The position numbers and the translations under genes are program-made. Source: a virus (lineage: Duplodnaviria; Heunggongvirae; Uroviricota; Caudoviricetes). From it: a stretch of DNA of 8,380 nt. Below the pieces are notes generated by a model. It searched no databases, was not told where the DNA came from, and worked only from the letters and a program-made list of their open reading frames with translations. Where the stretch lies: positions 1 through 8,380 of the IMG/VR virus record IMGVR_UViG_2684622669_000009; one strand, 5' to 3'. Positions within the stretch are counted from its first letter, which is position 1. Each line of letters opens with the position of its first letter. This document shows, piece by piece, positions 1-8,380 of this stretch.

Positions 1-232
1 CCAATTTATCCCTCAGGATCCTAAAGCGGTACTTTGGCGTCCAGACTATGGGATATTTGCAACGCCAATATACATGTGATGAACTTCTGTAAAGCCCCAT
101 GTCAGTTTGTTTCCTTTTACTTGTGGTGAGTAAGCAGAGATATTCCGACATGGGCATTCTTCAGGCTATAGCCTTACAGGATCAATCACCACCTCCCCAG
201 GAGGTGGTTTAGGGATAACAACAAAAAAACCC

Positions 233-256
233 GCAGTTACGCGGGCTTAGAGGTAC
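233..256 (-). terminator. Intrinsic (rho-independent) terminator downstream of the lysis cassette
   Basis: Stem cccgc (240-244) / gcggg (251-255) with a 6-nt loop; on the minus strand it is followed by a run of 7 T (plus-strand A-run 233-239). Lies about 165 nt downstream of the Rz stop. Confidence 0.6.
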
Positions 257-420
257 TTTACTGCTTTTACGTACAGGCTGTTGCCAGACGCGAAATCATT
301 CCCACTCAATTATTTACGACAACCATAACCAATTGAGTGATAACATTTTTCCAAAACCTCATTTTTCCCATACCGTTTTATATACCGTCACCGGAAATCA
401 GTACCATGAAAAATGCCATG

Positions 421-903
421 CTATCTGGTCAGGGTGTCGTACTGTTTTTCACAGACTCTTCCGGCTTCGGCTGCCCGGTCAGCATACTCTGCCAGTTGTC
501 TGTTTCTCTCGAGAGATTTGCTGAGCAAGTCGGCAAGCAAAACTCCGGTGTCTGCGGCTGACGCCCCAGCGCCGACAATGGCGTTATACTGCCTGAGCTG
601 CTCACGGATGGCAACGAGCTGTTGCTGCAACCGGCCAGCGCGAGCGGCAGCATCAAGAGCATCATTGCGCGCCTGGTCGATCCTTTGCTGAGCTTCACGT
701 TCATTGGTAGCTTTCTCCTGTTCGTAGTGCTGACGAACTATCTCATCTTCGGCTTTGCGATCTTCCTTCGCCTGCGCATACCCGGCTTCGTACTGACGAC
801 TGCCGTATGCATTCCAGGCTACAACTCCTGATATGACCAGAACAGCAAGCATCGCCATGATAACCAACTGTTTACTGTATGCTTTTGCGAATGCCCAGAT
901 CAT
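421..903 (-). CDS. Rz: Rz-like i-spanin (inner-membrane spanin subunit)
   Basis: 160 aa; N-terminal transmembrane segment (LVIMAMLAVLVISGVVAW) followed by a long charged, Q/A/E/R-rich predicted coiled coil. Its ATG overlaps the endolysin stop as ATGA (900-903), indicating translational coupling; it contains the embedded Rz1 frame. Confidence 0.85.
   Translation of the reverse strand: MIWAFAKAYSKQLVIMAMLAVLVISGVVAWNAYGSRQYEAGYAQAKEDRKAEDEIVRQHYEQEKATNEREAQQRIDQARNDALDAAARAGRLQQQLVAIREQLRQYNAIVGAGASAADTGVLLADLLSKSLERNRQLAEYADRAAEAGRVCEKQYDTLTR
429..704 (-). CDS. Rz1: Rz1-like o-spanin (outer-membrane lipoprotein), embedded out of frame inside Rz
   Basis: 91-aa ORF lying wholly inside the Rz ORF in another frame. 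N-terminus MNVKLSKGSTRR + hydrophobic AMMLLMLPLA + lipobox LAG|C is a typical lipoprotein signal peptide; the mature part is short and proline-rich as in lambda Rz1. AGGAGA Shine-Dalgarno about 9 nt upstream of the ATG at 704. Start could instead be the internal Met at 665 or 662. Confidence 0.75.
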   Translation of the reverse strand: MNVKLSKGSTRRAMMLLMLPLALAGCSNSSLPSVSSSGSITPLSALGRQPQTPEFCLPTCSANLSRETDNWQSMLTGQPKPEESVKNSTTP

Positions 904-1529
904 ACCGCCAGCACCTTACTGGCAGTGATGTACCGCGCGCGTCTGTCGTCGATTCCGTTCCTGCCACCATTGATAATCAGAGTTACACGTACAATATCTC
1001 CGGTATACTTCATGCAGCCTTTACTGGAGAAGAACCACGCCGCGCTACGAGCCGCGTATTCGTCCTGCGCCAGCAGTTCAGGACTCTCCAGCAGGTCAAC
1101 TTTCAGGCCGTTTCCGCAGTCACGATAGTTATTCAAACCGGTAATCTGGATAAGTCCGCGTCCTCGGTAATTCCAGCCATCACCAGGGGCATTGTTCCCC
1201 ATGCGTTTGCTGTACACCAGATTTGCAATCGCGCGCTGGCGCTCTAGTGGCAATGGTGGTTCACCAGCACGGCGACCCAGTGCATTAGCCTGTCCTTGGG
1301 TGAGACGCCCAGCCCGAACGAAGTTAGCCAGTCCGGTGACGCTGTAGTTGAAATTCTCCTGCAACCGGGTGAGGCCACCAGACTCATGCCCGACCTGAGC
1401 AATAAACATTGCTTGATCTTCGGCTTTGCTGATACCAAACTCTTTCATCGCAGAAGTTATATGCGAGAACCAGCGTGCAGCAAGCACCTCGCTAATACCA
1501 GCAGCTAGCTGGAATTGTTTAATCTCCAT
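900..1529 (-). CDS. Phage endolysin, glycoside hydrolase family 19 (chitinase-like lysozyme)
   Basis: 209 aa carrying the motifs I associate with GH19 phage endolysins: AQVGHESGG, PGDGWNYRGRGLIQITGLNNY, SPELLAQ, SAAWFF, INGGRNGIDDRR. Sits between holin-like genes and Rz/Rz1. Confidence 0.88.
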   Translation of the reverse strand: MEIKQFQLAAGISEVLAARWFSHITSAMKEFGISKAEDQAMFIAQVGHESGGLTRLQENFNYSVTGLANFVRAGRLTQGQANALGRRAGEPPLPLERQRAIANLVYSKRMGNNAPGDGWNYRGRGLIQITGLNNYRDCGNGLKVDLLESPELLAQDEYAARSAAWFFSSKGCMKYTGDIVRVTLIINGGRNGIDDRRARYITASKVLAV

Positions 1530-1830
1530 GTTTAAATCTCGTTATTTTGAAAATCTGAACGACGTTACCGCGCGTTTTAATAACCGCAGCAAGCATGACA
1601 GCGTTGATAATGACCTCAGATAAATCCACAGCCATTGGCGTGCGTAACCAGATTGCATAAACAACACGAACTGGAATACTGGCCGCAGCAACAATCAGGA
1701 AATAAGCAATCCACCCACCCCATCTTCGGTGTTGGGATCCGTTACGCTGGAAAGTGACAACGCGAATTGCTATGCCAGTACAAATAACCGCATTGGTGAT
1801 CAGCAAAAAAAGCTCATGAGTTACCATCAT
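1519..1830 (-). CDS. Holin-like small membrane protein (holin or antiholin) of the lysis cassette
   Basis: 103 aa with 2-3 predicted TM helices and a charged C-terminal tail (KTRGNVVQIFKITRFKHGD). GGAG-type Shine-Dalgarno upstream of the ATG at 1830. Overlaps the endolysin start by 11 nt and the upstream membrane-protein gene by 17 nt. Function is from position and topology, not recognised homology. Confidence 0.6.
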   Translation of the reverse strand: MMVTHELFLLITNAVICTGIAIRVVTFQRNGSQHRRWGGWIAYFLIVAAASIPVRVVYAIWLRTPMAVDLSEVIINAVMLAAVIKTRGNVVQIFKITRFKHGD

Positions 1831-2218
1831 CTTTTCTCCCCGGAATTAACTCGCGTGGATTATCTGAACGGTGATAGAGCCATATACCAATACGCACAGC
1901 GACAATTGCTGATACAAATGCACCGGCAGAAAAGACGACTCCTTTTTCGAATGATTCCTGCGTGATTGTTGGAATCAGGCTGGCTATGCCGATAAGAATT
2001 AATGCTGCTGGCTTGTAGAAAAGAAGACCACATAGAAAACTTAGTATCGATAAAAGAACACGACGACGAACAGGATACTCTACCGCTGAGGTAACAAAAA
2101 TTACCGCGCCCGCTAGTGCACCTAAAGCAACTTCTGGCGGCACACCAGCGACCACAGACATTAGCGCGCTCATGCTAAGCCCCTGATTCAGCGACCCTGT
2201 AGTTAATGTGTGCGACAT
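1814..2218 (-). CDS. Holin-like membrane protein (3 predicted TM helices), first gene of the lysis cassette
   Basis: About 134 aa from the ATG at 2216-2218 (GGTGG Shine-Dalgarno 5 nt upstream); the ORF track's start at 2227 is a GTG with no Shine-Dalgarno. Three hydrophobic segments and a charged C-terminus (YHRSDNPRELIPGRKDDGNS). Assigned by position and topology only. Confidence 0.6.
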   Translation of the reverse strand: MSHTLTTGSLNQGLSMSALMSVVAGVPPEVALGALAGAVIFVTSAVEYPVRRRVLLSILSFLCGLLFYKPAALILIGIASLIPTITQESFEKGVVFSAGAFVSAIVAVRIGIWLYHRSDNPRELIPGRKDDGNS

Positions 2219-2317
2219 AGAGACCACCGTTTAATGTGCATAAAGTCACCCCCCTTAGATGATGAGTCCATCATACACAATAAACCATATTGGGTTCAAA
2301 GAATCATAAAAATGCTC

Positions 2318-2347
2318 TTAACGAAATTACCTTAAAGGTGATATGAT
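2318..2347 (+). promoter_or_regulatory. Candidate sigma70 promoter for the acyltransferase gene
   Basis: TTAACG (2318-2323), 18-nt spacer, TATGAT (2342-2347), about 30 nt upstream of the ATG at 2378, in the AT-rich divergent intergenic region. Motif-level guess only. Confidence 0.3.
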
Positions 2348-2377
2348 AAATAAAATGATTCATGGTAGATATATAAA

Positions 2378-3472
2378 ATGTTCATTACTAACACTGATGT
2401 TTTTACCTTTCTTTTCTTAGCTATATCATTAATAGCGGCTATTTTTGTCAAAAAAATAATCCCATCAACCGTAATAAATGTACATAATGACACAACCTTA
2501 GAAGGTTTAAGAGGCATTGCATGCTTATTTGTATTTATAAATCATGCTTCATATAGCATTCATCACATCGGAATACAAAATTGGCAAATGATGGGTGATT
2601 CACCATATACCGGGAGAATGGGAGCTTTCGGAGTGGAGATATTTTTCTGTTTGACAGGGTACTTGTTTGCAAAAAAGATTCGCAAAGGAGATATAGACTT
2701 GTCATTTTTTGAAAAAAGAATCAGGAGGCTTGCTCCTGCATATATATTTGTATCATTTGTAGTTTTTATATATTTCGTATTTATGAACTATAATGTTATT
2801 CGTGGTTACTACGATATATCGGCTTTGATCCAACAAATTTTCGGATTCGGTTTCTTTGGGAATAGAATATCTGTAAACGGTATGGTGGATACATCATTGA
2901 ATGCTGTTGTGTGGACGCTTCCTTATGAATGGAAGTTTTATGCAATAGTCCCCTTCGTAGCGGCTATTTATAAGCTAAGAAGGCCTATCCCTCTACTTAT
3001 CGCATTTGGAGTAGCGACTGTTTGCATTGACTATTGGTCGAAAATGTTCTTGTGGGGGTTTTTCGTAACCGGATTCATTGCTTCATTCGTTGGTATTTTA
3101 GAAAATAGATATCTTAAGTATATCTCATATTACATAATGCTATTCCTATTTGCATATGCATTTAAGGGATCATTTGATATTCATGGTTTCCAAATGTTTG
3201 TCGTAGTATCTTTATTTTTCATAACATTTATTGCGGCAAGACCTAAGATATTCTCCATAGGAGTATTTGTTTACCTTGGAACTATAAGCTATAGCATTTA
3301 TCTACTACATCAGGTAGTTACAACGGTTTTCATGAAATTAATCTCTGGGGTAATCGATCTACTTACCATAAATATGTATGAATACTTAATGGTCTGCATC
3401 ATACCAATATCACTTACAATTTACTTATCATCTATTAGTTACAATAAAATAGAGAAAAAATTCATCAGATAA
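2378..3472 (+). CDS. Acyltransferase family 3 integral membrane protein; probable O-antigen / surface-polysaccharide O-acetyltransferase (lysogenic conversion gene)
   Basis: 364 aa, hydrophobic throughout (about 10 TM helices), with AT3-type motifs LEGLRGIACLFVFINH, FGVEIFFCLTGYL and SYSIYLLHQ. Markedly AT-rich compared with its neighbours (estimated by eye at roughly 30% GC). Opposite strand to the flanking phage genes. Confidence 0.85.
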   Translation: MFITNTDVFTFLFLAISLIAAIFVKKIIPSTVINVHNDTTLEGLRGIACLFVFINHASYSIHHIGIQNWQMMGDSPYTGRMGAFGVEIFFCLTGYLFAKKIRKGDIDLSFFEKRIRRLAPAYIFVSFVVFIYFVFMNYNVIRGYYDISALIQQIFGFGFFGNRISVNGMVDTSLNAVVWTLPYEWKFYAIVPFVAAIYKLRRPIPLLIAFGVATVCIDYWSKMFLWGFFVTGFIASFVGILENRYLKYISYYIMLFLFAYAFKGSFDIHGFQMFVVVSLFFITFIAARPKIFSIGVFVYLGTISYSIYLLHQVVTTVFMKLISGVIDLLTINMYEYLMVCIIPISLTIYLSSISYNKIEKKFIR

Positions 3473-3475
3473 ATA

Positions 3476-3507
3476 ATATTGGAGGGTTACTACCTCCAAT
3501 ATGTTTT
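3476..3507. terminator. Bidirectional terminator hairpin between the convergent acyltransferase and tailspike genes
   Basis: Perfect 10-bp stem atattggagg (3476-3485) / cctccaatat (3493-3502) with a 7-nt loop, followed by GTTTT on the plus strand and an A/T-rich stretch on the minus strand. Sits 4 nt after the acyltransferase stop and 13 nt after the tailspike stop. Confidence 0.7.
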
Positions 3508-3519
3508 GACTGCACTGTT

Positions 3520-5742
3520 TCAGCCGTTCGAGATTTTACCAGATATCCTAAATCTTAGCGCTCCAGATTTGATGTAATTGTATGTGAGGAAAGTTCTTGT
3601 GCCATCAGATGCCACGGCATAGAACTGAATCTTTGTGAAGTCTGTAGCTCCTGTAGGAATAAATCCAATAACATCGACAGTTCCTGCTGGTAATGCATTC
3701 CCAAGCGCTGTCCTGACCTCTATCTCGCATCCTGCCCCTGGATAAAAACCAAGCCCTCTGGGAAGGGTGATTGTGATATTTCCTGTACCGCCTGTTGTTC
3801 CTGTAACATTTATACTTACATGCAAATCAACATGCTCACCATCCCTCCTTGCAGTATATGTGCCAGTTTGTGTTACAGCTGTAGTATCATCGAAACCGAT
3901 ACTTCCAGTTAAGGCCGCATTAACCTGTAGTTCAGATTTAAATCCGCATATATTATTTCTCCACGGAATCGTTGGTTTATCACCATCCCATGTGATGGGT
4001 TGCGATGAAAAATGAGTTGTTTTATTACCAAGAAATTTTAAATTAAACAAGTTGTTATTTATATCGCCAACAAGATAAGCAGCATAAAAAGGTAGCCCTC
4101 CAGTAACAACCTGTTCATTGTGAGAAGTTACAACAGCATCGTGTATAGTATTGCTGGTTGAGCGAATCACAAACCCATAACCACCATTATCCATCGTTGC
4201 GCCAGAATCTGGATCTAATTTTGCAACGCTATCAGCATATGGTCTATAAAGTGTATGCCCACCAGATATCAATTCAAAACCGATTAACATTTGCCTGTTA
4301 GGATATAAATCATCTGATGTTTTAGGATGTCCCCATGGATGAGGATCTACAAGAGTATTCGATCCGGTACCAGAAATGCGAATGCCTATTGGATAATCTA
4401 TCGTTATAGGGTTTACAAAATGGCTATCACCAGTGCGAATCCACAATCCAACTACCGACTTGCTTTCCCATTTCATAATTCCAAAGCAACTATGCATAAT
4501 TGCGATTTCATAACCTATTGAAGGAATACCACCAATATCTGCCCCGCCTCTTAGCATCCCCCACGTTTCCATCTGACCTACCGTAACACCAGCTATATGC
4601 GTCATCAGAACACCAATTGCATCAACATGTTGGTAATATACGGTTCCCCAGTCAGTATTCTGCGTATGTCGTATGTGAATTCGTGGAATATAGGTACGCT
4701 TATCGCTATATGTGGTCGTTGGTGACATAATGTGATAGACAGCCTTATAGCTATTTCCTGCGGCATCTACTGTTTGGAAATCACCAGTTGGATCTGCCCA
4801 TATAACACCAGTCTGCAATACGCTAAGCCCTGCCAGATGCTTAATTGATGATTTAACCCGATAGACATTTGGCAGCCAAACTGTTTTGTTATTCTCATAA
4901 GCATAGTCATACGCATCCTGAATCATCACAGCCCAGTCAGTTTCTCCTGGATGATTTGCATAGAACTGCTCAGGTGTAACAAACTGCGAACGCGCAAATA
5001 GATCGTTTAAATCTGTTTGCACTGTACCGCTGGACATCGTGCCTATCAAACAACTTCCTGTTGGCTTCGCTAGTTCTATGAGAACATCAGCAGCAGAACC
5101 AGATTCTGGTAGTAGCATGATTGGGTTACCATTATCATCCATGCCTACAATTTTGTTTTTTCTCAACTCAACTGGTGGTAACTGCGGGATCATTTCTGCC
5201 GTGCGTAACGTTCTGCTAAAGAGAAGATCCGTATGCGAAGTGTTTCCAGCGCTAAGTGAGTCAGCATAATTCTTTGTCGCTGCATCCTGAGGGCGAATAG
5301 GGTCTCTTAAGTTTCTAATGTAGTTGTTTAGTGCGTCGTAATAATTAGCCACGAACGACGGCTTTCGCAGAACAAGGCTAAACCAACTACGCACTTGCTG
5401 GATCAGCATCGTCAGCTTATCGAACGCGTCTTCATGCACCTCAGCGAAAAACTTTCCCTGATTGCGCAGATCAGTTTCCTGCGTAACCGGTAGCTCTCGT
5501 GATATAGAAATCTGATAACCGTTAGCCAACGCCTTCGACAGAATTACATTACCGCCGTTATATCCTCCAGCTCCGGTAACTGTATAATCAGTATCAAGAG
5601 TCAGCACAGCAATATTTTCGTTAAGGTCAGAGACCTGAACAACCAAGTCGGATTTTTTGAAAATACGGAAGGTATACGGAAATGATGTCGTAACACCGTT
5701 ACCGGTGTATTCGTTGTGGTCAACTTCGGTTGAGACCGTCAT
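3520..5742 (-). CDS. Tailspike / tail fiber protein with putative polysaccharide depolymerase (beta-helix) receptor-binding domain
   Basis: 740 aa. The N-terminal ~150 aa (YTGNGVTTSFPYTFRIFKKSDLVV...LTLDTDYTV) follow the pattern of the T7 gp17 N-terminal particle-attachment domain. A downstream segment TPEQFYANHPGETDWAVMIQDAYDYAYENNKTVWLPNVYRV matches the signature at the start of pectate-lyase-type beta-helix tailspikes. Gly/Thr/Ser-rich C-terminus. GGAGA Shine-Dalgarno 6 nt before the ATG at 5742. Confidence 0.88.
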   Translation of the reverse strand: MTVSTEVDHNEYTGNGVTTSFPYTFRIFKKSDLVVQVSDLNENIAVLTLDTDYTVTGAGGYNGGNVILSKALANGYQISISRELPVTQETDLRNQGKFFAEVHEDAFDKLTMLIQQVRSWFSLVLRKPSFVANYYDALNNYIRNLRDPIRPQDAATKNYADSLSAGNTSHTDLLFSRTLRTAEMIPQLPPVELRKNKIVGMDDNGNPIMLLPESGSAADVLIELAKPTGSCLIGTMSSGTVQTDLNDLFARSQFVTPEQFYANHPGETDWAVMIQDAYDYAYENNKTVWLPNVYRVKSSIKHLAGLSVLQTGVIWADPTGDFQTVDAAGNSYKAVYHIMSPTTTYSDKRTYIPRIHIRHTQNTDWGTVYYQHVDAIGVLMTHIAGVTVGQMETWGMLRGGADIGGIPSIGYEIAIMHSCFGIMKWESKSVVGLWIRTGDSHFVNPITIDYPIGIRISGTGSNTLVDPHPWGHPKTSDDLYPNRQMLIGFELISGGHTLYRPYADSVAKLDPDSGATMDNGGYGFVIRSTSNTIHDAVVTSHNEQVVTGGLPFYAAYLVGDINNNLFNLKFLGNKTTHFSSQPITWDGDKPTIPWRNNICGFKSELQVNAALTGSIGFDDTTAVTQTGTYTARRDGEHVDLHVSINVTGTTGGTGNITITLPRGLGFYPGAGCEIEVRTALGNALPAGTVDVIGFIPTGATDFTKIQFYAVASDGTRTFLTYNYIKSGALRFRISGKISNG

Positions 5743-5898
5743 GTTAAATCTCCAGATAGTCGCAGCACCCGTTGCGCCGCATATCCGGTTATTCTATTAC
5801 CTGAAAAACCATATATGGATAGGTAACCCATAAATACGAACAGATATTACCTTTCAGGTAATTTGCAAAACGTGCTGGATAGCAAACAAATTATTTGA

Positions 5899-5918
5899 TA
5901 CTGTATATTCATACAGTT
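5899..5918 (+). promoter_or_regulatory. LexA (SOS) box overlapping the putative promoter of the 85-aa gene / Bro-N operon
   Basis: TACTGTATATTCATACAGTT matches the E. coli LexA consensus TACTGTATATATATACAGTA at 17 of 20 positions, with the CTGT-N8-ACAG core intact. It lies 20 nt upstream of the ATG at 5938, with a possible -10 TATATT (5904-5909) inside the box. Confidence 0.6.
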
Positions 5919-5937
5919 ATTGCATGGAGAAGATAAG

Positions 5938-6195
5938 ATGCAGCAGTATCACTATCCACTGGAAGACGGATTTACCGAAAGGATTCACACGCCGGGAGGC
6001 GTCAGGTCACTGGTGGAGGGATCGCACTTGATGAAATTACTCCGGGATCTCGATAAGGATGGATTTAATGTCGATGGCCCACTTACCGAACTGACTGCAC
6101 TGATTAACTACGTCACCAGCTCACAGATGTCTATGCAGGAGCTGCAAACACATCTCGACTATTGTGCCGAACAATTACGAAAGCAAACCAGATAA
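5938..6195 (+). CDS. Small protein (85 aa) paralogous to the C-terminal domain of the downstream Bro-N antirepressor; candidate SOS-induced antirepressor or modulator
   Basis: ATG at 5938 preceded by GGAGAAG. Aligns over its whole length with the last ~78 residues of the Bro-N protein (shared YxxPLxxG[FY]xxxIH[ST]PxGV...SxLMxLL...DGxxVxG...ELT...QTHxxY). The ORF-track start at 5920 is a TTG; the ATG with a Shine-Dalgarno is preferred. Confidence 0.7.
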   Translation: MQQYHYPLEDGFTERIHTPGGVRSLVEGSHLMKLLRDLDKDGFNVDGPLTELTALINYVTSSQMSMQELQTHLDYCAEQLRKQTR

Positions 6196-6333
6196 GGTTT
6201 GCAATTACCAAGCGGAGTGCTTATATTTACCTTTGCGGTAAATTTACATCGCACTCCTCTTGTGCCATAGTGATCAGGCACTGGCAAAATCCAGTGCCGG
6301 GATTGGCGTCCCGGATTACTAAAAGGCGCATTC

Positions 6334-6353
6334 ACCGCGCAAGCGGTTTTTTT
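6334..6353 (+). terminator. Candidate intrinsic terminator / attenuator between the 85-aa gene and the Bro-N gene
   Basis: 5-bp stem accgc / gcggt with a GCAA tetraloop, followed by a run of 7 T (6347-6353). The short stem suggests partial termination. Confidence 0.45.
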
Positions 6354-6510
6354 ATGCGTATAGCACGGTCACATTCGTATTATGGTGGGCTGTGTGGGGG
6401 CACCGAAAGGTGCGCCGGGTCCTTTTAGCCGGTTACGCCAACCCTGCACAGTTCACCACCAACCGATTGGCGTCGGTAGTGGTGATTAACCAGACTAAAA
6501 GGTAACCACT

Positions 6511-7197
6511 ATGACTGCTAACGTAACCCCATCTGTTTTTCATTTTGAATCAGAAGCAACCATTCGAGCCATTGTTATTGATGGAAATCCTTGGTTTGTT
6601 GCCAAAGACGTTATTAAAGCTCTTCAACTGACAAACCCCACTATGTCAATAAAATCTCTTGATGATGATGAAAGGGCTAAATTTAACTTAGGCCGTCAAG
6701 GCGAAACCAATATTATCAACGAGTCAGGCCTCTACACACTGATCCTCCGCTGCCGCGATGCGGTGACACCAGGCACTATCCCCTACCGCTTTCGTAAATG
6801 GGTTACAGGTGAGGTTCTTCCTCAGATCCGCCGCACCGGAAGTTACATTAAAAACTCGCTCCCGCAGGAAGAACGCATAAAGATGGTTGCCGACCAGGTA
6901 GCCAACGCCACAGCATCAGCAGTGATGCAGGCAATGAAGATAGAGAACAAAACCTACAGCGCCCCACTGAAGCCCGGCTACCGCAGTCTGATTCATTCTC
7001 CGTCTGGTGTTCTCGGCTTGACGGAGAACTCACTGCTGATGAATCTGCTGAACCGGTTACAGGAAGACGGGCACGACGTATCGGGCGCGGCGGCGGAGCT
7101 GACCACCATGTTCTGCTACATCGTCGGTGTGAGCAAATGCCTGCGTGATATCCAGACACACGCGGAGTACATCAACGACAAAGCAGGGTTCTTCTGA
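6511..7197 (+). CDS. Bro-N domain phage antirepressor-like protein
   Basis: 228 aa. N-terminal ~110 aa fit the Bro-N pattern (FHFESEATIRAIVIDGNPWFVAKDVIKALQL...ESGLYTLILRCRD). The C-terminal ~78 aa are paralogous to the upstream 85-aa protein. Confidence 0.85.
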   Translation: MTANVTPSVFHFESEATIRAIVIDGNPWFVAKDVIKALQLTNPTMSIKSLDDDERAKFNLGRQGETNIINESGLYTLILRCRDAVTPGTIPYRFRKWVTGEVLPQIRRTGSYIKNSLPQEERIKMVADQVANATASAVMQAMKIENKTYSAPLKPGYRSLIHSPSGVLGLTENSLLMNLLNRLQEDGHDVSGAAAELTTMFCYIVGVSKCLRDIQTHAEYINDKAGFF

Positions 7198-7204
7198 CGG
7201 CGGC

Positions 7205-7223
7205 GGCACAGGGATGTGCCTTT
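7205..7223 (+). terminator. Weak candidate terminator hairpin after the Bro-N gene
   Basis: Stem ggcaca (7205-7210) / tgtgcc (7215-7220) with a GGGA loop, followed by only TTT then AAA. A weak terminator at best. Confidence 0.3.
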
Positions 7224-7313
7224 AAATAATTCTGTACAGATTGCAGGTGAATAGCTTACTATTACCTCACGGGTGATCCATAGCGATTAGGCACCGATAC
7301 AGGAGGAGCCCAC

Positions 7314-7346
7314 ATGAGAAAATTTGACGAGTACGAAGGCGTTTAA
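7314..7346 (+). CDS. Mini-ORF (10 codons, MRKFDEYEGV) with a strong Shine-Dalgarno; candidate leader peptide
   Basis: AGGAGG (7301-7306) lies 7 nt upstream of the ATG at 7314; stop TAA at 7344-7346. An in-frame stop just upstream rules out a longer ORF. A hairpin follows 18 nt downstream. Tiny ORFs are often chance, so confidence is low. Confidence 0.25.
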   Translation: MRKFDEYEGV

Positions 7347-7364
7347 CATTCGGATAGTTTAATG

Positions 7365-7387
7365 ACGGGGCCATTAGGCCCCGTTTT
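7365..7387 (+). terminator. GC-rich hairpin (terminator or attenuator) immediately upstream of the 179-aa gene
   Basis: Perfect 8-bp stem acggggcc (7365-7372) / ggccccgt (7377-7384) with a 4-nt loop, followed by a short T-run (TTT then CAT). The downstream gene's Shine-Dalgarno starts only 8 nt after the hairpin, so the hairpin must lie in that gene's 5' leader unless the gene is read through from upstream. Confidence 0.45.
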
Positions 7388-7405
7388 CATGTCTGGAGAC
7401 AGTTT

Positions 7406-7945
7406 GTGTTAAGTGAAGAAATGCAATTTGCCATGGCTGTAGCTCAAATCGTAAGTGCAGTCGCGGTTTCGCTTGGCTTGTTCATAGCTATCGCTACTAT
7501 TATTTATAATGTAAATACAGCGAGAAAAGTACACACTTCAGTATTCCTTGGTGAAAGCAGGTTTGATGTAGATTATAAGAAAGGCCTATCTACTATGCGC
7601 CGCATTCACGAATCGAACAAATCATTCCGCTCTTATATGTATCCAAGCAATGGGCAGGCTGATCTTACGGATGAAGAAAAGACAGAGAAGAGAGAAATAA
7701 TTTACTGTCTAGGTTTCTACGAACGCATGGCTGTGAGCGTGAAGCGGAAAACTTATGATGAGACCATGATTAAGGAAGTATTTTACAGCTCCGTTGTAAA
7801 TAACTATCAGATTGCGCTACCTCTTATACAAGCCATTAGAGAAAAAGAAAACATAAACACATATTTTAAAGAATATGAATGGTTGGCCACACGATGGAAG
7901 GATTGCCCATTGAAGGATAAATCCCCGTGGTACAAGTTTTGGTAA
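7406..7945 (+). CDS. Membrane-anchored protein of unknown function (179 aa); candidate superinfection-exclusion / abortive-infection effector
   Basis: GTG start at 7406 with GGAGA 6 nt upstream (alternative ATG at 7421). One N-terminal TM helix (FAMAVAQIVSAVAVSLGLFIAIATIIYNV) then a ~140-aa charged soluble domain rich in K/E/Y. Lower GC than its neighbours (estimated by eye at roughly 40%). Followed directly by a strong terminator. I recognise no family for it. Confidence 0.7.
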   Translation: MLSEEMQFAMAVAQIVSAVAVSLGLFIAIATIIYNVNTARKVHTSVFLGESRFDVDYKKGLSTMRRIHESNKSFRSYMYPSNGQADLTDEEKTEKREIIYCLGFYERMAVSVKRKTYDETMIKEVFYSSVVNNYQIALPLIQAIREKENINTYFKEYEWLATRWKDCPLKDKSPWYKFW

Positions 7946-7966
7946 GCCCGCGCTGCGGGCTTTTTT
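7946..7966 (+). terminator. Intrinsic terminator after the 179-aa gene
   Basis: Stem gcccgc (7946-7951) / gcgggc (7955-7960) with a 3-nt loop, followed by a run of 6 T (7961-7966). Begins one nucleotide after the TAA stop. Confidence 0.75.
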
Positions 7967-8038
7967 GTGGACGAAACAAAAGTCAGTGCTACACTCATTG
8001 ACGCCACATTGAGGTGGCTTATAGATGGAAATTTCACA

Positions 8039-8200
8039 ATGAAAAAAGCATTTGCTGCACTGTTCGTTTTGTTGTCTCTGGTAGCTTCAACTCAGGCTTT
8101 TGCCGGTCGTTGTCAGCACGACAGCGATACTGCTGCTGACGGCTCCCGCTGCGGTGGGCGTTCTGCGGACTCCCGCCCGGGCGGCGGTGGCATTCGTTAA
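8039..8200 (+). CDS. Possible small secreted peptide (53 aa) with an N-terminal signal peptide
   Basis: ATG at 8039. MKKAFAALFVLLSLVASTQAFA looks like a Sec signal peptide with an AFA cleavage motif; the predicted mature part (~31 aa, Gly/Ser/Arg-rich, two Cys) is low-complexity. No clear Shine-Dalgarno, GC-rich region with ORFs in several frames, and a 5-codon upstream ORF (8025-8042) overlaps the start as ATGA. May be spurious. Confidence 0.3.
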   Translation: MKKAFAALFVLLSLVASTQAFAGRCQHDSDTAADGSRCGGRSADSRPGGGGIR

Positions 8201-8222
8201 AAACAAGGCCGCGAAAGCGGCC
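8197..8222 (-). terminator. Intrinsic terminator on the minus strand, downstream of the partial minus-strand gene
   Basis: Perfect 6-bp stem ggccgc (8207-8212) / gcggcc (8217-8222) with a 4-nt loop; on the minus strand it is followed by TTGTTTTTAA (plus 8197-8206). Sits 10 nt after the candidate minus-strand stop at 8232-8234. Confidence 0.6.
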
Positions 8223-8231
8223 TGTGACATG

Positions 8232-8380
8232 TCACGTCCCTTTTCTGAATGATATCCATTCGAAAAATGATGACATTCCACCGCAGACAACAGCAAAGAT
8301 GATCCCACCAAAGAAGAGAATGCCAGCCTGCCACCACTCCCACCGCCATACATCCACAGCGCCAACCATACCAACAATCG
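8232..8380 (-). CDS. 3' end of a minus-strand gene for a hydrophobic, Trp-rich small or membrane protein; partial, continues beyond the window
   Basis: Hand translation of the minus strand in the frame that stops at 8232-8234 gives ...IVGMVGAVDVWRWEWWQAGILFFGGIIFAVVCGGMSSFFEWISFRKGT*, which ends cleanly just before the minus-strand terminator. The overlapping ORF-track frame (8087..8377) would run through that hairpin and is low-complexity. A complete 46-aa protein from the ATG at 8367-8369 is also possible. Confidence 0.3.
   Translation of the reverse strand, partial: IVGMVGAVDVWRWEWWQAGILFFGGIIFAVVCGGMSSFFEWISFRKGT

Follow-up and report, generated by a model that had tools for sequence, protein, structure and literature searches.

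Organization of the mini-ORF module

The DNA analysed here, referred to as the window, is a stretch of 8,380 nucleotides (positions 1 to 8,380 of the IMG/VR virus record IMGVR_UViG_2684622669_000009) that belongs to an epsilon15/phiV10/TL-2011b-like prophage of E. coli. It contains a ten-codon open reading frame (ORF), here called the mini-ORF, that encodes the peptide MRKFDEYEGV and is followed by a GC-rich hairpin and by the gene for a 179-aa protein of the DUF4760 family. We tentatively suggest that the decapeptide is itself a functional product, and that the hairpin serves as a terminator within the transcription unit rather than as part of a switch. The features of the module are as follows (SD, Shine-Dalgarno sequence).

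7233-7262, plus strand: putative sigma-70 promoter, TGTACA (7233-7238), N18 and TACTAT (7257-7262), inferred from an alignment of relatives
7262-7276: operator-like palindrome TTACC-TCACG-GGTGA, which has one mismatch to TTACC-N5-GGTAA and begins at the last T of the -10 element
7301-7306, plus strand: SD of the mini-ORF, AGGAGG, with a 7-nt spacer to the ATG (from the sequence)
7314-7346, plus strand: mini-ORF MRKFDEYEGV, 10 codons (ATG AGA AAA TTT GAC GAG TAC GAA GGC GTT TAA), with the TAA at 7344-7346
7347-7364, plus strand: spacer of 18 nt from the mini-ORF stop codon to the 8-bp hairpin (from the sequence)
7365-7384, plus strand: hairpin ACGGGGCC-ATTA-GGCCCCGT with an 8-bp GC-rich stem (from the sequence)
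7364-7388, plus strand: intrinsic-terminator-like hairpin plus TTTT, with a stem of 8-9 bp and the loop ATTA (from the fold; the structure is conserved)
7395-7398, plus strand: SD of the DUF4760 gene, GGAG (from the sequence)
7406-7945, plus strand: DUF4760 gene, 179 aa, GTG start
7944-7968, plus strand: strong intrinsic terminator, AAGCCCGCGCTGCGGGCTT then TTTTTGTG, which closes the module (from a terminator scan)

A preliminary description of this DNA had placed AGGAGG 7 nt before the ATG of a ten-codon ORF and an 8-bp GC hairpin with a short T-run 18 nt past that ORF, and both are present, the latter in the sequence and in the fold. Directly 3' of the hairpin is TTTT (7385-7388), the next base being C, and a G7364-U7385 wobble may lengthen the stem to 9 bp. 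The same description had argued that a promoter would not fit between hairpin and gene. Consistent with this, the hairpin and the GTG are just 21 nt apart and a promoter scan found no promoter-like site in between, so the hairpin must belong to the leader of the DUF4760 gene.

The mini-ORF is conserved and selected at the peptide level

We compared more than 40 unique upstream regions, taken from IMG/VR contigs, from contigs encoding more distant DUF4760 proteins and from pattern scans, with protein identity going down to 33%. At every homologue locus examined (in E. coli, Klebsiella, Pantoea, Erwinia and Yersinia, in enterobacterial phages and in IMG/VR contigs) there is an SD, an ORF of 10-13 codons, a GC hairpin and T-run, a second SD and a DUF4760 start. 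The preliminary description had named conservation of the mini-ORF in relatives as a check on its proposal, and every DUF4760 homologue locus that we examined has the mini-ORF; because the arrangement is conserved across relatives, it is beyond chance.

The encoded peptides form a family that ends in [DE]-E-[FY]-[DE]-[GWL]-[FVL]-stop and of which MRKFDEYEGV is a member. What is conserved is the C-terminal hexapeptide (DEYEGV in the window; most relatives have DEFDGF or DEFEGF), the N-terminal part differing in both length and sequence. Homologues include MKKFDEYEGV, MEKFDEYEGV, MSKFDEYELV, MRKFDEFEGF, MKKFDEFDGF, MKKVFDEFDGF, MRKMFDEFDGF, MKKMYDEFDGF, MRINEEFDGF, MIKFIRDEFEGF and MKKIIHDEFEWV.

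Conservation among 35 unique ORF sequences is codon-periodic: over the last six codons the third position is variable in 6 of 6, and the first and second positions are each variable in 2 of 6. Both TTA and CTG are used for leucine, the reading frame contains 7 distinct pentapeptides compared with 23-25 in the other two frames, and the stop codon is TAA in 32 of the 35. Mean pairwise identity is 0.75 over the last 18 nt of the ORF versus 0.28-0.37 in the flanks. An SD-like core is present in all 37 of 37 unique DUF4760-linked modules, and the identical decapeptide MKKFDEFDGF precedes DUF4760 proteins that share just 38-62% identity. Judged from these comparisons of sequence, the mini-ORF is a genuine coding sequence that is selected at the level of the peptide. 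(Note that the mini-ORF segment occurs in 52 of 5,426 complete E. coli genomes; because it is near-identical in all of them, these genomes are uninformative on selection.) There is no PGAP annotation under the mini-ORF, a scan of species-representative genomes at the protein level returned no relatives, and a pattern scan of genomes returned two genuine loci together with three chance matches.

The module is found in differing contexts, namely after the antirepressor gene ant (as in the window), after lambda-like tail genes, and between chromosomal phosphotransferase system (PTS) and decarboxylase genes, which argues that it moves as a unit. At the loci examined DUF4760 was never seen without the mini-ORF, whereas the mini-ORF does occur without DUF4760. 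In particular, a recombinant E. coli lineage has kept the mini-ORF, 100% identical, and has lost both the terminator and DUF4760 (L002 2673-2776, L053, L054, L062, L065, L075, L076 and L083; the junction corresponds to window 7363/7364). In this lineage a second operator-like palindrome, TTTACCCTAATGGTAAA, comes after the mini-ORF, and after that an unrelated 211-aa gene (phrog_1349, unknown function).

A terminator-type hairpin is the conserved RNA structure of the leader

The window hairpin alone has a folding energy of -18.4 kcal/mol (z = -5.1), a value matched by 0 of 200 shuffles. Its T-run is short (4 T, homologues often having 5-8 T), and a consensus terminator scan of the window did not list the 7364-7388 hairpin. 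When we required a single hairpin of at least 6 bp and -10 kcal/mol or lower, followed by a T-run and no more than 60 nt from the stop codon, a hairpin and T-run were found between the mini-ORF and DUF4760 in 46 of 48 unique modules versus 1 of 240 shuffles; the two modules without one both come from one recombinant E. coli lineage. The stem sequences are clade-specific (CGGGGCC, GGCGGG, AUCGGAGG and GCGGAGCC are examples), and within the clade of the window there are compensatory changes. The SD of DUF4760 is conserved in position, 4-10 nt past the T-run in homologues. The sequence of the spacer is unconserved (mean pairwise identity 0.31), and the distance from the stop codon to the hairpin is 13-47 nt, with 16-20 nt in 36 of 47 modules.

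Two side observations concern this region in relatives. In one DUF4760 clade (L131, L142-L168) the T-run is followed by UUUUAUGGAUGAAA...GGAUG, such that two GGA motifs flank the SD and start of DUF4760; these motifs resemble CsrA binding sites. In L260, L281 and L231 the terminator after MKKM[YH]DEFDGF is broken in its 3' arm by foreign sequence (...TGCTCCC joined to ATAAGCGCTAACTTAAGGGTTG) and no DUF4760 follows; the break may be an insertion or deletion junction.

The preliminary description had gone on to suggest a leader peptide and attenuator, with translation of the mini-ORF modulating termination or read-through into the DUF4760 gene. One half of that suggestion stands, in that a selected ORF with an SD (37 of 37 modules, codon-periodic) and an intrinsic terminator (46 of 48) precede a gene without its own promoter. 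The other half, a switchable structure, does not. RNAalifold analysis of 11 diverse leaders returned the terminator hairpin only, and no antiterminator. Pairing of the spacer with the downstream SD region was no better than that of shuffled spacers (mean z +0.25 over 47 modules), no regulatory codon runs are present in the list of peptides, and no known stalling motif was recognised in it. An Rfam cmscan with E up to 1 assigned no family to 7263-7405, its matches lying only at 6265-6463 and 221-337.

Two candidate structures were considered and rejected. An SD-masking outer helix (7349-7356:7390-7397), which encloses the terminator and covers the DUF4760 SD in the minimum free energy fold of the window, is not conserved in the RNAalifold analysis and so is no general feature of the modules. 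An antiterminator was seen neither by eye nor by RNAalifold; a 4-bp CCUC:GAGG pairing at the stem base in one clade is too weak and too clade-specific to serve as one.

Given that the hairpin lies 13-47 nt past the stop codon and that, by our estimate, a ribosome covers about 10 nt past that codon, the hairpin would be out of reach of a ribosome at that position. Overlap between a stalled ribosome and the element that it controls is thus absent from the DUF4760 modules. (One feature of arrest peptides is present, namely that the conserved residues are the C-terminal ones, near the peptidyl-transferase centre.) Because a ribosome-remodelled structure is the defining feature of an attenuator, and was tested for and not found, a classical attenuator switch is not supported by the leader sequences.

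The same micro-ORF occurs in many other phage contexts

The preliminary description had also allowed that the peptide could itself be functional, and it is this alternative that the wider data favour, since the same ORF is found in many phage contexts. When IMG/VR was searched for every synonymous spelling of DEFDGF-TAA, the matches came to at least 120 viral stretches, versus one for the scrambled control DFEGDF-TAA; DEFDGF-stop mini-ORFs are therefore at least 120-fold enriched in phage contigs over that control. We fetched 113 new loci from the DEFDGF-TAA matches listed, 84 of which are without DUF4760 downstream. Among the matches listed, these 84 loci have an open frame of at most 82 codons, with ORFs mostly of 8-14 aa (MKDEFDGF, MYDEFDGF, MLDEFDGF and MKKKRMNDEFDGF are among them), and they comprise 26 synonymous 21-mer spellings and 54 unique downstream contexts. 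In a further control, DEFDGF followed by D or E, most of the matches listed are Walker-B-like motifs in long ATPase or terminase ORFs. Since DEFDGF also lies inside such long ORFs, the diagnostic object is the short ORF and not the hexapeptide string.

Epsilon15 carries, next to its terminase, a reverse-oriented gene of 121 aa whose stop codon is overlapped by a DEFDGF-type mini-ORF; a convergent gene lies past the mini-ORF. This trailer mini-ORF (L289 2264-2700, equivalent to about 2110-2546 of the epsilon15 record) is followed by a 12-bp palindrome, GTGACATGTCAC, that is conserved in relatives, and by a terminator. One mini-ORF sits between two terminators. T4-like Karamvirus phages have a 21-aa ORF, PG7_053 (annotated as 'hypothetical protein'), between a-gt.2 and gp47. 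In P2-like phages the mini-ORF comes after a small ClpX-zinc-finger-like gene: in L189 (82-320) and L177, from P2-like and other phages, the gene of a 64-aa protein is overlapped at its 3' end by MKKKRMNDEFDGF, after which come a hairpin and a 174-aa gene of unknown function. The C-terminal part of the 64-aa protein (...YICNECVDLCNEII...) resembles the ClpX N-terminal zinc-binding domain.

Many of these ORFs, such as the stop-overlapping trailers and the ORF between two terminators, have no same-strand gene to regulate, and one contig holds both a DUF4760-leader copy and a trailer copy (L031, L225). Multi-unit forms are found as well (MKDEFEWCDEFDGF, MLDEFEGFDEFDGF, MFDEFDGFDEHPDF and MFDEFDGFDEFDGF). 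Because DEFDGF is not C-terminal in these, they fit a binding motif and not arrest at a stop codon, and they suggest multivalent binding.

The DUF4760 protein

The 179-aa protein matches Pfam PF15956 (DUF4760; E = 8e-31) and belongs to phrog_2284, of unknown function. Its start at GTG 7406 is backed by ATG-x-L-S-E in homologues. The AlphaFold2 (AF2) model is all-helical (pLDDT 84.6), and by our reading of the sequence the N-terminal helix would be a transmembrane anchor. The basic residues R52, R75, R107, K123 and R145 are invariant. PADLOC returned no match for DUF4760, Pfam no nuclease match, and PHROG no annotated function; literature searches on DUF4760 and on the peptide strings returned nothing functional and no prior description.

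Promoter, operator and prophage setting

The putative promoter at 7233-7262 scored under threshold in a consensus promoter scan. The promoters of the modules as a group scored 8.33 versus 7.73 in shuffles, a slight excess only, so that the assignment rests on position and operator geometry and not on statistics. The window and some relatives are without 7 nt (ACTGGGG) at 7239-7256, other relatives having this insertion between TTGCAG and TACTAT; the difference shifts the likely -35 element from TTGCAG (N17) in the relatives with the insertion to TGTACA (N18) in the window.

The window contains five matches to TTACC-N5-GGTAA versus 0.28 expected by chance.

2080, 2327-2341, 5847-5861, 6227-6241 and 7262-7276: copies of the operator

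Apart from the copy in the module, copies lie in front of the acyltransferase gene and of a 91-aa ORF at 5920, and at the immI promoter, and the motif is that of sites annotated 'repressor, lysogeny' in the GenBank record of epsilon15 (ATTACCTAAAAGGTAAT and ATTACCAAAACGGTAAT). The 7262-7276 copy is conserved upstream of all of the cargo variants described below, and the geometry of the -10 element and operator at 7257-7276 is the same as at the predicted immI promoter (6198-6227, with the operator at 6227). We had entertained the idea that the palindrome TTACC-N5-GGTGA forms a 5' RNA hairpin; this was dropped, because the palindrome is the same as the repressor sites annotated in epsilon15 and overlies the -10/+1 region. 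The module promoter is probably under the control of the phage repressor, in which case the module would be expressed mainly on derepression or infection and less in the quiet lysogen.

The remaining features of the window are as follows.

421-2227, minus strand: lysis genes
2378-3472: acyltransferase gene
3520-5742, minus strand: tailspike gene
6265-6463, plus strand: P1-type immI region, upstream of the BRO-N antirepressor gene (Rfam covariance-model search)
6265-6317, plus strand: a1/b1 target in the immI region, with a score slightly under the gathering score
6278-6353, plus strand: isrK-like RNA in the immI region (77.9 bits)
6378-6463, plus strand: C4 antisense RNA in the immI region (77.7 bits)
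6511-7197: BRO-N antirepressor gene (ant), with its stop codon at 7195-7197
7205-7231, plus strand: hairpin GGCACA-GGGA-TGTGCC (7205-7220), then TTTAAATAATT, immediately after the ant stop codon (from the sequence)
8039-8200, plus strand: 53-aa ORF (MKKAFAALFVLLSLVASTQAFAGRC...), found as WP_000708858.1 in several genomes; conserved flank to the right of the cargo slot

The interval between ant and the 53-aa ORF (window 7198-8038) is a cargo hotspot (loci L001-L006), with both flanks conserved, the left one holding promoter and operator, and the cargo alternating. In related prophages a YafO-family gene, DUF2335 or unrelated hypothetical genes take the place of DUF4760, and the YafO-family toxin comes with an unannotated upstream ORF. 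The 7205-7231 hairpin, which is probably a weak end of the ant transcript, is part of the conserved left flank and is kept in loci with differing cargo genes.

A Pfam search with the 53-aa ORF returned no family; by our reading of its sequence it has an apparent signal peptide and a Gly/Arg-rich tail. Near the Rz-like lysis gene there is a weak match to Trp_leader (221-337, minus strand; 32.7 bits against a gathering score of 41, E = 0.0011), which is probably due to chance.

A possible trans-acting micropeptide

We propose that 7233-7968 is one small transcription unit in the variable cargo slot of the prophage. Transcription would start at the promoter at 7233-7262, which the repressor operator at 7262-7276 overlaps, and the first cistron, as its sequence and conservation show, is the ten-codon ORF with its strong ribosome binding site. 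The terminator at 7364-7388 would end most transcripts near 7388; the resulting RNA, about 120 nt long, would encode the peptide alone, and a minority of polymerases would read through to the promoterless DUF4760 gene and stop at 7962. The output of peptide would thus be much greater than that of DUF4760, with the terminator acting as a fixed leaky valve and not as a switch. The peptide, with its C-terminal hexapeptide as the conserved part, would be free in the cytoplasm, where candidate targets are DUF4760, whose cytoplasmic domain has the invariant basic residues, or else a conserved protein of the host.

The explanation that we favour, if only tentatively and with a little less than even confidence, is that the first cistron has the peptide as its functional product and that the peptide acts in trans by way of its acidic-aromatic C-terminus. 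We favour it because of the selection at the peptide level, the linkage to DUF4760 and the fact that only the terminator is conserved as an RNA structure; because the ORF is portable, occurs in copies with nothing to regulate and takes multi-unit forms; and because the recombinant lineage keeps the mini-ORF after losing the terminator and DUF4760. A broader proposal, which we consider possible but doubtful, is that enterobacterial phages (epsilon15-like, lambdoid, P2-like, virulent T4-like and possibly jumbo) encode free micropeptides of 8-14 aa, with 1-3 DE-x-x-[GD]-F units and an acidic-aromatic C-terminus, as a widespread family that has escaped recognition so far. Such peptides would be stand-alone linear motifs that bind a host hub or DUF4760. 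The hub would be, for example, among the proteins that read SSB-type or clamp-binding tails, and MRKFDEYEGV, as one member, would through the internal terminator greatly outnumber DUF4760.

Several points weigh against a function in trans. To our knowledge, unmodified cytoplasmic peptides of 8-13 residues with such a function are rare in bacteria. The likeness to SSB and clamp-binding tails is imperfect, there being no [IL]-P-F ending and the window peptide ending in Val. The distance from stop codon to hairpin clusters at 16-20 nt despite randomised spacer sequences, which hints at a constraint in cis, and in several contexts without DUF4760 the hairpin begins 0-7 nt past the stop codon, where a terminating ribosome could block it, again an effect in cis. 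The functions of the promoter and operator are deduced from the sequence and from the annotation of another record only. Finally, the precedents for short conserved upstream ORFs are mostly arrest peptides that act in cis (PMC11890864).

The best placed of the alternatives is a ribosome-arrest leader, in which ...DE[FY][DE]G[FV] would stall the ribosome at or near the stop codon, either constitutively or in response to a ligand or translation stress, and would thereby alter termination, mRNA stability or translation of DUF4760. The module would then be a sensing attenuator, in line with the preliminary description. Six conserved residues that adjoin the stop codon, together with a variable N-terminus, are the pattern of termination-blocking arrest peptides such as TnaC, SpeFL, MsrDL and PepNL (PMC11890864). 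The prevalence of TAA (32 of 35 unique ORFs), a terminator that always follows, the lack of a promoter of DUF4760's own, the clustered spacing and the hairpins that begin 0-7 nt past the stop codon in some other phage contexts would all fit such a leader. However, no conserved antiterminator or SD-masking structure was found, the hairpin of the DUF4760 modules lies beyond the estimated reach of the ribosome, and arrest leaves unexplained the trailers with a convergent gene, the ORF between terminators and the tandem units in which DEFDGF is not C-terminal. We consider arrest unlikely, while regarding it as a serious rival to a function in trans.

We judge improbable a special case of action in trans, in which the peptide and DUF4760 would form a pair akin to a toxin-antitoxin system: an abundant, short-lived decapeptide would keep the membrane-anchored DUF4760 inactive, loss of the peptide would free DUF4760, and the internal terminator would keep the mRNA of the peptide in excess. 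The order of small product, terminator and effector resembles that of ToxIN; at the loci examined DUF4760 was never found without the mini-ORF, which itself occurs without DUF4760; and the invariant R52, R75, R107, K123 and R145 could bind an acidic peptide. Such a pair is difficult to reconcile with ORFs of the same hexapeptide beside many unrelated genes and in virulent T4-like phages without DUF4760 at those loci. Moreover, DUF4760 has no PADLOC match, and the operator suggests repression in the lysogen, a poor fit to a standing abortive-infection guard. As for a chance or remnant ORF next to a terminator of the upstream ant operon, which the position of the hairpin downstream of ant and the empty PGAP annotation might suggest, we regard it as excluded on the evidence of these loci, given that mini-ORF, hairpin and DUF4760 are found together where ant is absent as well, after tail genes and between chromosomal PTS and decarboxylase genes, that conservation is strongly codon-periodic and that ant has its own hairpin at 7205-7220.

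Should the peptide act in trans, few unmodified gene products of bacteria or phages with a conserved function would be smaller, the whole gene would be a binding motif that gene callers (PGAP) miss, and the peptide would provide a handle on a host target addressed by very different phages. Action in cis would make it a new ribosome-arrest sequence, one that dispenses with the usual RNA switch. In either case, the DUF4760 family (phrog_2284) gains a fixed partner and a defined expression logic, and the repressor-controlled cargo slot of epsilon15-like prophages has been mapped.

Comparison with known systems

For each known family that could be assessed, the module lacks a defining feature. Peptides this short can act, as MsrDL (6 aa) and PepNL (14 aa) illustrate (PMC11890864), and MsrDL is reported to control an intrinsic terminator (PMC10314930). 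Like the arrest peptides TnaC, SpeFL, MsrDL and PepNL, the mini-ORF is a tiny upstream ORF with conserved C-terminal residues in the leader of a gene; unlike them, it has no conserved structure to remodel and a terminator 13-47 nt off, and the family also includes trailers and tandem units. With the trp, his, phe and pyrBI attenuators the module shares a promoter, a leader ORF, an intrinsic terminator and a gene without its own promoter. It differs from them in having neither regulatory codon runs nor mutually exclusive 2:3 and 3:4 hairpins, and in that selection is on the amino-acid sequence as such, beyond mere codon identity.

In toiL-topAI (Baniulyte and Wade, 2019), antibiotic-induced stalling reportedly relieves Rho termination and opens a ribosome-binding site. 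That system, too, has a tiny upstream ORF, there controlling a gene on a prophage-like element; no comparable RNA logic is seen in our module.

Type III toxin-antitoxin systems are found on mobile or phage-related elements, the upstream product being a repetitive RNA and the effector an endoribonuclease. In one of these, ToxIN (Fineran and colleagues, 2009), a small upstream product is reportedly kept in excess by an internal Rho-independent terminator and followed by an effector that is expressed by read-through. Our module resembles ToxIN in architecture only, having a small product, an internal terminator and a downstream effector in one unit; it differs in pairing a decapeptide, selected as a coding sequence, with a putatively membrane-anchored helical protein that has no nuclease match.

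Acidic tails that end in an aromatic residue are found in SSB (...DFDDDIPF), in the RB69 polymerase (...LFDMFDF) and in T7 gp2.5 and gp4, and the reference motifs are D-D-D-[IL]-P-F-COOH for the SSB C-terminus (SSB-Ct) and QL[SD]LF for the clamp. In most members of the micropeptide family, as in the SSB, RB69 and T7 tails, there are several acidic residues and an aromatic one within the sequence, and the chain ends in Phe with its carboxylate free. With the two reference motifs the family consensus has only its acidic character and hydrophobic C-terminus in common. The [IL]-P-F and QL[SD]LF signatures of SSB and clamp-binding tails are absent, and in contrast to those tails, which are parts of larger proteins, here the whole gene product is the motif.

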